Virus record (IMG/VR): IMGVR_UViG_2547132252_000009
DNA length: 7,819 nt
From: a virus
Lineage: Duplodnaviria > Heunggongvirae > Uroviricota > Caudoviricetes
Direction: 5' to 3' (one strand)
Shown: in pieces, positions 1-5,520 of the stretch
Layout of the letters: each line of letters begins with the position of its first letter
Numbering within the stretch: the stretch's first letter is position 1
The notes under the pieces: model-generated
Seen by the model: the letters and a program-made list of their open reading frames with translations, nothing else
Told to the model about the DNA's origin: nothing
Databases searched by the model: none
Made by a program: the position numbers and the translations under genes

Positions 1-442
1 CCGGTGCTTGTTCAGCTCCCGCAGCGCGGCGCAGACTCGCTCCCACTTCTGAACATCACTTTTCGCCCTGCGCAGCGCCAGGTTTGCCCTGCGAAGGGAC
101 GGAAAAATCAGCTCATCTGCTTGCGTTTCGGTAAACGATGGCAACGGCTGCACAATGTCCGCCACAGTTTCTGTTTTAATTTCTTCCTGTGTTGCGGCTT
201 CCCGGACTGGTAACGCAGCACCTGCTGGCTGAGGAAAGGCCTTACCATCACTTTCCGTTACCAGCGCGGCTTTCGGCTCTGCTGGTAAATTATCGCCCGG
301 CATGCAGTAACGAAATTTACCGTTCTGATTAACGCGTGCCAGCCGCCCCGTTGCGGTTACCACCGCCAGCGTGGAAGCAACCTTGCGAGTACTGACACCG
401 AACTTACCCGCCAGTTCCTCACACGTTTTAGCCCCATCCTGA
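1..442 (-). pseudogene. 3' portion of a disrupted hypothetical prophage ORF; open to the window edge, separated from its 5' part by the lox-like insertion and duplication
   Basis: Hand translation of the minus strand from 442 to 1 in the frame that continues the 467..940 ORF (using the copy-1 version of the repeat) gives a stop-free, protein-like reading (...[64 protein letters not shown]...). No start codon of its own is evident. Confidence 0.5.
261..442. repeat. Direct repeat copy 1 (~182 bp) of a gene-internal segment; carries gtaacg at 307-312
   Basis: 261-442 is near-identical to 485-665; the only internal difference seen is one extra A (gtaacg here, gtacg in copy 2). Confidence 0.9.
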
Positions 443-446
443 TCGT

Positions 447-480
447 ATAACTTCGTATAATGTATGCTATACGAAGTCAT
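447..480. other. lox-type recombination site: 13-bp arm, 8-bp spacer, 13-bp arm; 33/34 identical to P1 loxP in inverted orientation
   Basis: ATAACTTCGTATA ATGTATGC TATACGAAGTcAT; canonical loxP reverse complement is ATAACTTCGTATA ATGTATGC TATACGAAGTTAT. Single mismatch at 478. Lies exactly between the two direct-repeat copies. Confidence 0.85.
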
Positions 481-940
481 TACGCCAGCGCGGCTTTCGG
501 CTCTGCTGGTAAATTATCGCCCGGCATGCAGTACGAAATTTACCGTTCTGATTAACGCGTGCCAGCCGCCCCGTTGCGGTTACCACCGCCAGCGTGGAAG
601 CAACCTTGCGAGTACTGACACCGAACTTACCCGCCAGTTCCTCACACGTTTTAGCCCCATCCTGACCGATAAACTCAATCATCATGTCTGCGGTAACTTT
701 TTGTTCGACCTCCCCGGTCAGCATATCCTGTGCTTCAGATTTTACTGGCCGCTCTTCGGTTACCCGGGATTCACCTTCGCCAGCCAGAAACCAGGTGTGA
801 CCAGTTTTATCAACGACGCCATTTATTTTGAGTTCCCACAGCTCGTTGACAGCCTCTTCACGACTGATTCCAAGGCGAGCTGCCACCACATGTGAAGAGG
901 CTTTTTTCAGTGCTTTCAGTGCGTCAGATACGGTTTCCAT
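467..940 (-). CDS. Hypothetical prophage protein, truncated: genuine N-terminal part, then frameshifted by the 1-bp deletion in repeat copy 2 and terminated by TAG inside the lox-like site
   Basis: ATG at 940-938 preceded by GGAGG (ccggaggaaattttaATG). N-terminal sequence has two helix-turn-helix-like segments. The last ~22 residues ([21 protein letters not shown]) differ from the copy-1 reading and end in the lox site. Confidence 0.6.
485..665. repeat. Direct repeat copy 2 (~181 bp); 1-bp shorter than copy 1 (gtacg at 531-535)
   Basis: Same sequence as 261-442 apart from a single-base deletion; the left boundary is ambiguous by 2-4 bp (tac-g-ccagcg versus tta-ccagcg). Confidence 0.9.
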
Positions 941-2164: not shown

Positions 2165-2916
2165 CACCTGCTGCACAGCGCCCGAATCGGCTTCCGGTGT
2201 CGTGCCTGCTGGCTGACCAGGATTGACGGTCTGAACATCCCCTGCCTGGTTCGTGGTGTTTTTTTGCCATGAACCATAGTGTTTTTGTCCTGTTCCTGTT
2301 CTTTCTCCTGCTCCTGTTCCTGTTCTTGGCTTCGAAGCCCCTTAAAAGCCCCTTCGAAGCCCCTTACCGAATTTCGGCTATTATTCCGCCTCACATCCAG
2401 ATGGAAATCCGTTTTATATCTGTCGTAAAACACTGACAGAAAAGCGTTTTCAGGTAATGATGCATACTCATTCCTGACACCTGCACAACGGTTATCGCCA
2501 GGCTTCAACGTTTCCCCAACCTGCCAGGCTGCCATTTCATGGACCCAGACCATCTCTGCATCATGGTCATAGCTACAAAAACCAGCTTCAACAGCCCTTT
2601 TAAGCCCCTTTGAAGCCCCTTCCAGACCAAGCCCGGTTTCATGAGCAAGGTATAAAACTGGCAGGTAATACAAACCCAGCATATTTGCGTGAGGGGATGT
2701 CATCAGGTAAAAAGCAACAACTTGCGCTTCTGCACCCGCCTTTCTAAGTTCTCTCCCCGTTTCTCCCAGCCAGAATCGCGGAGAAACTTTTGCGTAATCA
2801 CGCATGGCTACCTCATCTGGTGCCGAACCTTCCTCCGGATATAATCTGTGGTTCCCAATCGACAGAACCAGAGGAGGTTCGACATGTATTTTTTGAAAAG
2901 CCTTTATCAGGCTCAT
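2164..2916 (-). CDS. Putative phage replication initiator (O-like replisome organizer), N-terminal domain plus (EQ)n linker; possibly the 5' part of a frameshifted initiator-DnaT fusion
   Basis: 250-aa ORF with internal repeats GLEGASKGLKRA / GFEGAFKGLRS and an EQEQEQEKEQEQ linker. After the A7 run the tail is arginine-rich and junk-like. Alternative start ATG at 2805 with GAGG 5 nt upstream (MRDYAKV...); ATG at 2916 has no clear SD. Confidence 0.6.
   Translation of the reverse strand: MSLIKAFQKIHVEPPLVLSIGNHRLYPEEGSAPDEVAMRDYAKVSPRFWLGETGRELRKAGAEAQVVAFYLMTSPHANMLGLYYLPVLYLAHETGLGLEGASKGLKRAVEAGFCSYDHDAEMVWVHEMAAWQVGETLKPGDNRCAGVRNEYASLPENAFLSVFYDRYKTDFHLDVRRNNSRNSVRGFEGAFKGLRSQEQEQEQEKEQEQDKNTMVHGKKTPRTRQGMFRPSILVSQQARHRKPIRALCSR
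2285..2366. repeat. Imperfect hexamer repeat (TCCTGT)n at 2285-2326 followed by three tandem 11-bp iteron-like units T(C/A)(G/A)AAGCCCCT at 2332-2364
   Basis: Read directly: tcctgt tcctgt tctttc tcctgc tcctgt tcctgt, then tcgaagcccct taaaagcccct tcgaagcccct, at helical-turn spacing. Confidence 0.7.
2593..2623. repeat. Second cluster of three tandem 10-11 bp AGCCCCTT-type repeats
   Basis: agccctttta agcccctttga agccccttcc; same core as the 2332-2364 cluster, about 260 bp away, inside the initiator ORF. Confidence 0.6.
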
Positions 2917-3339: not shown

Positions 3340-3532
3340 GCCCGGCACACGCTTCTGCATCAGCCAGCTTTATTCTGGTTTCCTTGCGCTGTTCTCTGGC
3401 TGACAAACGCCAGAGCAGCGCATTAGCTTTATGTATCAACCACTCTGCCAGCTCCACATCAGATAAACCGCCACGCCAGATGTGCGGACTGTTTTCGTAA
3501 ACGCTCAGTGTCAATTTTTTGTCATTACTCAT
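3023..3532 (-). CDS. Hypothetical protein (169 aa) between the ydaT-like gene and the replication initiator
   Basis: ORF in operon orientation with ydaS/ydaT/initiator; balanced charged/hydrophobic composition. Start taken as ATG 3532 (MSNDKKLTLSV...), weak SD; the track's GTG start at 3583 would overlap ydaT. Competes with the antisense plus-strand ORF 2884..3339. Confidence 0.5.
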   Translation of the reverse strand: MSNDKKLTLSVYENSPHIWRGGLSDVELAEWLIHKANALLWRLSAREQRKETRIKLADAEACAGLIEDYTNLGISSAESDPIQPLSRESIQHAGCMAHLVTARQHEVGIGSLPAGYSLIPELVEARKSVQKKRDDALQLLREHYGAIPECEQRRYPEGYEWMQSLFEVR

Positions 3533-3545
3533 ATTTATTACCCAA

Positions 3546-3971
3546 TTAATGCACAGCCAGAGTGTTTCCTGCCGGGCCACCACGATTCATCTGATCGAAC
3601 AGAACGATCGCTGATGCAACGAAATCATCAATATCTTTCACCAGCCGTTCCTTCGTCTCTACCAACTCCCGAAAATAAGCGGAACTGTGGCTGCGCATTC
3701 GGGCCACCAGCGGAGGCGGCATCGCTTTTTCGATCGCTGGTAACAACGCCTGAATTTTTTTAACCGCATCAGGAGTGTCTTTCTCCACCCAGCGGAAAAT
3801 TTTCTGAGTATTGCGAGCCATGGCTTCCGGATGGCTGTCGTCATACAGTTCCGGGAACGTCATTCCCAGCTCGAAATACGCTTTGGTAATTTTCGCAGCC
3901 GGTACTTTTTCGCCGTCCGGATGCGCCCAGGCATTCATCGCCATGCGGATGTGTTCATGCTTGATTTTCAT
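3546..3971 (-). CDS. ydaT: YdaT-like protein (CII-like regulator / putative toxin family)
   Basis: 141 aa starting MKIKHEHIR..., recalled as the Rac YdaT N-terminus; sits directly downstream of the Cro-like gene with a 17-bp overlap; GGAG 9 nt upstream of the ATG. Confidence 0.75.
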   Translation of the reverse strand: MKIKHEHIRMAMNAWAHPDGEKVPAAKITKAYFELGMTFPELYDDSHPEAMARNTQKIFRWVEKDTPDAVKKIQALLPAIEKAMPPPLVARMRSHSSAYFRELVETKERLVKDIDDFVASAIVLFDQMNRGGPAGNTLAVH

Positions 3972-4227
3972 GAATCAACTCCGGCGCATTTGATGTGTTA
4001 ACCTTACATCCAACAGGTAAACCGTCGGTTGGGTTAGGATAAATATCTGGGCGGATTTCATGCGGGGTAACTTCCCACTTCATTAGTTGGCATAACGGAA
4101 TTACCTGCTTTGGGGGAACGCCAAAGCTAAACCATTGCCAAACAGTCTGTTGAGCGACCCCCATATAACGACCTATTTCAGCCTGAGTGTATTTCTGCCT
4201 AATTTTTTCGCGAGTGCTATCTAGCAT
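3955..4227 (-). CDS. ydaS: Cro-like HTH regulator (YdaS-like)
   Basis: 90 aa; HTH motif AEIGRYMGVAQQTVWQW; ATG 4227 preceded by GGAGG (5-nt spacer); divergent from the repressor gene across the operator region. Confidence 0.8.
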   Translation of the reverse strand: MLDSTREKIRQKYTQAEIGRYMGVAQQTVWQWFSFGVPPKQVIPLCQLMKWEVTPHEIRPDIYPNPTDGLPVGCKVNTSNAPELIHENQA

Positions 4228-4260
4228 TTTGCCCTCCTCTAAAAACTATAAGCAAAGCCT

Positions 4261-4299
4261 ACAATAAAAAACTGTATGCAATCAACAGTTTTTTATTGT
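4261..4299. promoter_or_regulatory. Operator: perfect 15-bp inverted repeat ACAATAAAAAACTGT / ACAGTTTTTTATTGT with 9-bp spacer, in the divergent ydaS / repressor intergenic region
   Basis: 4261-4275 is the exact reverse complement of 4285-4299. A further ACAG/CTGT mini-palindrome lies at 4306-4328. Candidate -10 TATAGT for ydaS (minus strand, 4243-4248) and TAAAAT (4324-4329) for the repressor gene. Confidence 0.7.
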
Positions 4300-4335: not shown

Positions 4336-4737
4336 ATGATGAGCGCCCTAGAAGTATCTATGTACAGAATCAGCAAGCTTCTTCAGGAAACTGGATGGAG
4401 CCAGGCTGAGCTTGCCCGTAGAATTGGTGTGACACAACAAACTGTTCAACAATGGGTCAGCGGTAAGGCTACACCTAAAGCCTCAAGTTTGGATAAACTG
4501 GTTGAGGTTTCAGGGCATCCATTGCATTGGTTTTTATTGCCTCCTGAAGAGTGTGAGCAAATTTTCACCCCTGACACGATGAAAATTGGTCCTCGCCAAC
4601 GCGAACTGCTCCAAGCTTTTAGTGCGTTTCCTGAGGAAGACCAAGAAAAAATGCTTCAAGAAATCAAAGACAAGAAAAAATCAATGGAAGAAACCATTGC
4701 TAGGTGGCTGGCGGCACAAAAAAGCCGCCGGGCGTGA
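4336..4737 (+). CDS. paaR2: CI-like XRE-family repressor, PaaR2-like
   Basis: 133 aa; HTH SQAELARRIGVTQQTVQQWVSG; first gene of a three-gene operon with a small antitoxin and a ParE toxin; divergent from the Cro-like gene. Confidence 0.8.
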   Translation: MMSALEVSMYRISKLLQETGWSQAELARRIGVTQQTVQQWVSGKATPKASSLDKLVEVSGHPLHWFLLPPEECEQIFTPDTMKIGPRQRELLQAFSAFPEEDQEKMLQEIKDKKKSMEETIARWLAAQKSRRA

Positions 4738-5284: not shown

Positions 5285-5294
5285 GCCCAAAACA

Positions 5295-5334
5295 ACAATT
5301 AAAAACTGTTGACACAAAAACAGTTTTTTATTGT
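5295..5334. promoter_or_regulatory. Second operator copy (ACAATTAAAAACTGT, 10-bp spacer, ACAGTTTTTTATTGT) with a perfect TTGACA -35 in the spacer, upstream of the ydfA operon
   Basis: Right half-site 5320-5334 is identical to 4285-4299; left half 14/15 identical; TTGACA at 5309-5314. A -10 is not clearly identifiable (TAGATT at 5335-5340 is too far). Confidence 0.55.
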
Positions 5335-5520
5335 AGATTACATACACCAACCACCCACCCCGCCCCACAGAACGCCGGGCAATACTTCGAGTTACCAAGC
5401 AGTGGTCAGGGGGTAAGTAGCCAGCCCGAGGCGTATGAACATGACGGCAGGGTTCAACTTTAATAACTATGCAGCAGGTTTTTGTTCCGCTACCCGGCGT
5501 TAAGGGGAAATGAGGTCAAC

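Follow-up and report, generated by a model that had tools for sequence, protein, structure and literature searches.

The 7,819-nt stretch of DNA analyzed here (the window) is the whole of one contig in the draft scaffold GL896790.1 (GCA_000215165.1), to which it is 100% identical, and it is bounded by N-gaps at both ends. It matches the lambdoid prophage adjoining yccA in E. coli O157:H7 and its relatives at 99.9% identity, and at least 80% of it is covered by one match in each of 429 complete genomes. The native stretch measures 7,597 bases, which leaves the window with a net surplus of 222. Compared with the finished genome of EC4115, positions 1-442 are wild type, as is the sequence from 485 to the end, which corresponds to native position 261 onward; the other differences are an A missing from the second copy of a repeat described below, a T7 instead of a T8 run at 2259-2265, and an SNP at 7753. 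The SNP, an A in the window where EC4115 and other O157:H7 genomes have T, is the sole substitution. Leftward from about position 250, the sequence is 100% identical to that of a paralogous prophage, and the contig ends at position 1 because the assembler collapsed this shared prophage repeat into the neighboring contig.

Several features typify the remainder of the window. A DicF antisense sRNA gene lies on the plus strand at 6916-6967 (Rfam RF00039, 76.9 bits, E=3.7e-16), upstream of a dicB-like prophage region. Between the divergent cro-like gene (3955-4227, minus strand) and repressor-like gene (4336-4737, plus strand), a perfect 15-nt inverted repeat, ACAATAAAAAACTGT / ACAGTTTTTTATTGT, is found at 4259-4299, and a near copy of it is located at 5290-5339, downstream of a relB/relE-like pair. 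Both inverted repeats look like operator sites and are candidates for such a function. At 2288-2370 and 2585-2637, the replication-region gene contains short direct repeats: repeats of the AAGCCCCTT type, three copies of a 42-nt family, which by analogy with lambda O might be origin iterons, and two copies of TCCTGTTCCTGTTCTT, which encodes a Gln/Glu-rich low-complexity stretch of the QEQEQ type.

The gene of interest is encoded on the minus strand at the left end of the window. In EC4115 it is a 771-nt CDS for a 256-aa protein, WP_000450992.1, annotated as 'DUF1627 domain-containing protein'. Its start codon lies at 940-938, preceded by a GGAGG Shine-Dalgarno sequence at about 953-949, and the native gene extends from 940 to 54 nt beyond position 1, in accordance with the original prediction of one native gene that had a single copy of the now repeated segment and continued past the window edge. 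The 5′ part of the gene (666-940, codons 1-91) is identical to wild-type EC4115, and the 3′ part (1-260, codons 154-238) breaks off at the contig end, with 54 nt of the gene lying beyond it; these 54 nt, together with the stop codon, are present in the neighboring collapsed-repeat contig with 100% wild-type sequence. Immediately upstream, at 962-1708 on the minus strand, a 248-aa protein annotated as 'ATP-binding protein' is encoded. Pfam identifies it as a DnaC/IstB-like AAA+ ATPase (IstB_IS21, E=1.4e-18; Bac_DnaA, E=9e-8), and the DUF1627 gene thus directly follows a dnaC-like gene as predicted. The same order, with the DUF1627 gene between the DnaC-like and DUF977 genes, is found in EC4115, in the draft scaffold GL896790.1 and in GCA_036422055.1, a setting that represents the replication/nin-like region of a prophage. 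The interrupted gene, which had been labeled a host ORF, is a gene of the prophage.

The wild-type protein matches PF07789 (DUF1627) at residues 91-245 over all 155 profile positions (1-155; 328 bits, E=1e-98; the gathering cut-off is 28.1 bits), and phrog_630, described as 'unknown function', matches its full length. Members of this family occur in lambdoid prophages of E. coli, Shigella and Salmonella. In the literature DUF1627 was found only as a synteny marker near the PasA/PasC sRNAs, and our search returned no experimentally known function, so the protein is indeed uncharacterized as originally stated. The homologs number 2,258; the full-length ones among the matches listed are about 250-256 aa long, and no natural ortholog ending near residue 153-157 is found among those listed. 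The intact 256-aa protein belongs to a 983-member cluster and is present on at least 1,000 contigs.

The original prediction also assigned two HTH-like segments to the N-terminal region. All of the Pfam HTH matches are weak and below their cut-offs, namely HTH_Crp_2 at residues 18-48 (E=0.008) and HTH_PafC at 87-126 (E=2.5e-4), and PHROG profiles of MarR-like and Ren-like proteins match residues 83-137. Together, the sub-cut-off profile matches at 83-140 comprise PafC, FeoC, MarR-like, Ren-like and the DDRGK winged helix, and a sequence search of the PDB returned only matches with E>0.07, to winged-helix domains. We then considered an AlphaFold2 model based on 30 close homologs, the overall confidence of which is low (mean pLDDT 54.7). 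In this model, three-helix bundles are predicted at residues 4-39 and 84-129 with pLDDT values of about 66-78, separated and followed by disordered linkers (43-80 and 138-203), and a long helix is predicted at 197-255. No Foldseek match in the PDB reached E<=0.001, and the weak matches were all to HTH or wHTH proteins. The two modeled bundles agree with the prediction, but the profile matches are below their cut-offs and the structural matches are not significant, and the HTH assignment is plausible without being proven. We tentatively describe the DUF1627 protein as containing two HTH-like helical bundles and a long C-terminal helix.

In the window, this gene is interrupted by a duplication with a recombination site at its center. 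The plus strand at 447-480 reads ATAACTTCGTATAATGTATGCTATACGAAGTCAT, which matches the loxP site of phage P1 at 33 of 34 positions. The site is composed of ATAACTTCGTATA, ATGTATGC and TATACGAAGTCAT: of the two 13-bp inverted-repeat arms (ATAACTTCGTATA / TATACGAAGTTAT), the left one matches at 13/13 and the right one at 12/13 positions, and the asymmetric 8-bp spacer ATGTATGC is an exact match at 460-467. The sole mismatch, T478C, is the third base from the outer end of the right arm. None of 200 dinucleotide-preserving shuffles of the sequence gave a loxP match, and the match is far beyond chance. On one side of the site lies copy 1 of a segment of the gene (segment S, codons 92-153), 182 bp of wild-type sequence at 261-442, and on the other side lies copy 2, 181 bp at 485-665, both on the minus strand. 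Native 261-442 is single-copy at the EC4115 locus and occurs twice in the window as direct repeats around lox. The copies are joined to the site by TCGT at 443-446, of which 443 and 446 differ from the native sequence, and by a non-native TACG filler at 481-484, and the foreign DNA at the join amounts to 42 nt only (the lox site plus 4 + 4 nt). Comparison with the native sequence revealed neither a vector nor a marker nor a transposon end at the join. The flanks on both sides are collinear with the wild-type prophage, which bears out the predicted interruption of the gene by a lox-containing insertion. With respect to the protein, segment S approximately coincides with the second helical module.

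The two copies differ by one A only: copy 1 contains GTAACG (307-312) and copy 2 GTACG (531-535). The finished genomes carry the AA of copy 1, so that copy 2 is the deviant one. Deletion of 443-665 restores the wild-type sequence exactly, and the restored reading frame is free of stops and encodes a product identical to WP_000450992.1 over the 238 residues encoded in the window, which makes it a full-length member of the DUF1627 family. The alternative deletion of 261-484, which had been proposed as equivalent, keeps the frameshift and does not restore the protein.

As deposited, the ORF that begins with the ATG at 940 occupies 467-940 on the minus strand and encodes 157 aa, consisting of native residues 1-136 and a 21-aa frameshifted tail. 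The native frame is lost after residue 136 as a result of the missing A, and translation stops at a TAG at 469-467 inside loxP, while the frame of copy 1 is stop-free on the minus strand from the lox site to position 1; all coordinates and frames given in the original prediction are correct. That prediction, however, regarded the 1-bp indel as what sets the fate of the gene. When the indel is repaired, the native frame reads AAA GCC GCG CTG GCG TAA TGA at the junction and ends at tandem stops, TAA at 482-480 and TGA at 479-477 (minus strand, 477-482), and the product has 153 aa where the deposited one has 157. Without the 1-bp loss, the insertion would measure 224 bp, a length not divisible by three. 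The C-terminal 100 or so residues are detached with or without the A in copy 2. The indel thus only determines which stop codon of the scar is used and is not the cause of the disruption, because translation from the ATG at 940 ends at the lox junction in both versions. Either way, the gene is split into an N-terminal ORF of 157 aa (or 153 aa) and an orphan C-terminal part, in contrast to the full-length members of the family, and the deposited ORF covers only positions 1-47 of the PF07789 profile.

The single mutation in the lox site also creates a start codon. On the gene strand, T478C converts ATA at 480-478 to an ATG that opens the sole stop-free frame through lox, and this frame is in phase with copy 1 and the C-terminal part of the gene. 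The resulting ORF (1-480, minus strand) has 160 codons open to the window edge, with 14 residues followed by native residues 94 onward, and its ATG overlaps the native-frame stop as TAATG. No Shine-Dalgarno sequence is present upstream of this ATG. In the draft scaffold, the gene caller took the lox ATG as the start of a 468-aa ORF; we rejected this ORF as an artefact that reads through a 20-N scaffold gap into the contig of the paralogous prophage. No published use or design of the lox variants TATACGAAGTCAT and ATGACTTCGTATA was found in the literature, and the ATG created by T478C is probably a coincidence or a synthesis error.

The allele is unique among the sequences searched. The lox junction is absent from all of the 5,426 complete E. 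coli genomes, the GTACG allele of copy 2 occurs in no complete E. coli genome, and the 157-aa product is found on exactly one contig in the protein collection.

To judge the missing A in copy 2, we compared about 14 kb of the locus between the draft and finished EC4115 and found one substitution and four differences of a single base. The latter are without exception deletions in homopolymers (T8>T7, T5>T4, T6>T5, and AA>A in copy 2), a profile that points to homopolymer undercalling by a pyrosequencing-type platform. The T5>T4 and T6>T5 differences are at 15312 and 16155 of the analyzed stretch of scaffold GL896790.1. The T7 run at window 2259-2265, T8 in finished genomes, splits the 363-aa replication-region gene (WP_001205823.1, annotated as 'hypothetical' or 'DNA-binding protein') into ORFs at 1715-2176 and 2164-2916 on the minus strand. 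Other early drafts of O157:H7, among them DEC3D and DEC3F, share the T7 frameshift product, and the T7 allele is present in only 1 of about 435 complete genomes; it is probably a homopolymer sequencing error. In the next contig, the paralogous DUF1627 gene of the second prophage (12640-12760 of the same scaffold stretch) appears N-terminally truncated by a frameshift in an A7 run (CTCAAAAAAATGG), a probable homopolymer error as well.

On balance, we lean toward a sequencing error as the explanation of the missing A in copy 2, in line with the other indels between the draft and the finished genome, all of which are single-base homopolymer deletions. That the deletion is real is a serious possibility to which we give somewhat less than even weight; it would then stem from a PCR, oligonucleotide or cloning error in a construct or from a later mutation, and the 157-aa product would be the true one. 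In copy 2, the deleted base falls 49-50 nt from the junction, within the quarter nearest to lox, in the part of the repeat that would be expected to derive from incoming DNA by either of the insertion routes considered below. The sole mutation of the lox site, T478C, is found on this side too and suggests that the synthetic or PCR-derived DNA was imperfect. Moreover, a two-base homopolymer is an unusual site for an error in a consensus sequence, as pyrosequencing errors are less typical of two-base runs than of longer homopolymers. The lack of this allele in other genomes is equally what a sequencing error would show. We also considered that the indel marks the end of a primer homology arm of about 50 nt and rejected this idea, as truncation at the 5′ end of an oligonucleotide would not introduce a deletion.

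From the arrangement of target repeat, lox and target repeat, we conclude with high confidence that the window carries a laboratory-made, Cre-resolved loxP insertion-duplication allele of the prophage DUF1627 gene. What had been described as an insertion is most likely a laboratory Cre/lox scar and not a mobile element. In the proposed course of events, a floxed vector or marker would first have been inserted with duplication of the 182-bp target (codons 92-153). This could have occurred by integration of a suicide plasmid with the 182-bp fragment through a single crossover (Campbell type), or by lambda-Red recombineering with 'ends-in' homology arms, that is, arms in swapped order. Cre would subsequently have excised everything between two lox sites and left the target repeats with a single lox between them; a past excision is inferred because there is no marker at the join. 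As a consequence, translation from the ATG at 940 would end at the lox junction, and the C-terminal 100 or so residues with the long helix would be detached from the protein, presumably with loss of function. With only 4 nt on either side of it, the lox site probably came from primers or synthetic DNA.

Both insertion routes are documented to give a tandem duplication held by a marker (PMC5389514). In the same study, duplications of 100-210 bp segregated no more often than background, and the 182-bp repeat would therefore be expected to persist after excision of the marker. Homology of 182 bp is short for RecA-mediated plasmid integration, a point against the proposal. The products of the two routes are not separable by sequence. 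Our literature search found no account of the strain or of its Cre/lox construction, and we infer the engineering history from the sequence alone.

Two known kinds of allele resemble the one in the window. Like the scar of Cre/loxP marker excision, it has the 34-bp site of phage P1 with its two inverted 13-bp arms and the ATGTATGC spacer, present as a single chromosomal site with few non-native flanking bases and neither marker nor vector. It differs from such a scar in the T478C change in one arm that gives an ATG on the gene strand, in the lack of priming-site or vector remnants, and in that a duplicated target surrounds it, whereas such scars take the place of a deleted segment. Like insertion-duplication alleles, either of the Campbell type or of the lambda-Red 'Dup-In' type (Nasvall et al., PMC5389514), it consists of a tandem target repeat of otherwise wild-type sequence, the foreign DNA sits precisely where the copies meet, and a duplication below about 210 bp is expected to be stable. 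In contrast to these alleles, only the lox site and no selectable cassette is present. The Dup-In method itself relies on a counter-selectable marker and is meant to segregate scarlessly. The accession of the assembly suggests that it predates the 2016 Dup-In paper, and a floxed suicide plasmid or mis-ordered homology arms are for this reason equally possible as the route.

The TAATG overlap raises the question of whether the gene was split by design. The junction GCG-TAATG-ACT would then separate two overlapping fragments, residues 1-153 and a lox-derived peptide followed by residues 94-256, with the stop of the N-terminal fragment overlapping the start of the C-terminal one. A single lox mutation provides an ATG in the only stop-free lox frame, in phase with copy 1 and the C-terminus; by our own estimate, about 4 of the 102 possible single lox substitutions would create such an ATG, and one of three frames fits. 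We nevertheless consider this quite unlikely. The lox ATG has no Shine-Dalgarno sequence before it, and a split-gene design would not require an overlap of 61 codons; no such lox variant or design was found in published work, and the TAATG pattern was noticed after the fact. Still less likely, in our judgment, is a purposeful or selected allele in which DUF1627 is split at a domain boundary into co-expressed fragments, each with the second wHTH-like module, by means of the TAATG overlap. If this were true, the gene would not be simply deletable, for instance if the quiescence of this prophage or of a co-resident one depends on it, and the allele would provide a hint at the function of the uncharacterized DUF1627 family.

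An assembly artefact, in which genomic reads were joined with reads of a lox-containing vector or amplicon into a chimeric contig, was also considered. The scaffold is a fragmented, gapped draft with visible base-level errors, and the contig ends inside a collapsed prophage repeat. However, the lox site lies in one contig between two precise native copies with unique native flanks (260 bp and 7.1 kb), and no vector sequence extends beyond the 42 nt. An exact tandem duplication with clean boundaries at both ends is not what a chimera would produce, and we regard this origin as highly improbable. A natural origin, by P1 Cre acting on a chromosomal pseudo-lox or by a spontaneous tandem duplication in a duplication-prone part of the gene that later acquired lox, is the least probable of all and close to negligible. 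In an unrelated assembly, GCA_036422055.1, the DUF1627 ortholog (3343-3576 of the analyzed stretch of JAZGOI010000009.1) contains a tandem duplication of 117 bp, perfect and in frame (39 aa, STLAVV...KAALV twice), the 3′ boundary of which is 2 nt from the boundary of segment S, and which may reflect a duplication hotspot, an assembly error or chance. However, this duplication has no lox site and differs in length and start, Cre, like other tyrosine recombinases, does not duplicate its target, and the junction is absent from the complete genomes mentioned above. The involvement of a pseudo-lox site was rejected, as the native insertion point is not lox-like (local alignment score 7, a score of >=7 being reached in 26% of windows of the locus) and both lox arms are canonical instead of hybrid.

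The allele is thus most likely a Cre-resolved insertion duplication, an engineering artefact that is already known in kind and brings no new biology. Its main value is in data hygiene, as a public draft assembly of E. coli O157:H7 type holds an engineered Cre/lox scar. RefSeq and UniParc carry the 157-aa product as a 'DUF1627 domain-containing protein' (WP_432704223.1), the last 21 residues of which are derived from frameshifted sequence and from lox/junction sequence (the last five codons). When pipelines search assemblies for natural recombination sites, novel ORFs or pseudogenes, they should recognize the pattern of target repeat, lox and target repeat, and 1-bp homopolymer indels in the draft GCA_000215165.1 are to be distrusted. 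For the DUF1627 family, the only addition is the tentative domain layout of the intact protein, in which two HTH-like bundles would be followed by a long C-terminal helix.
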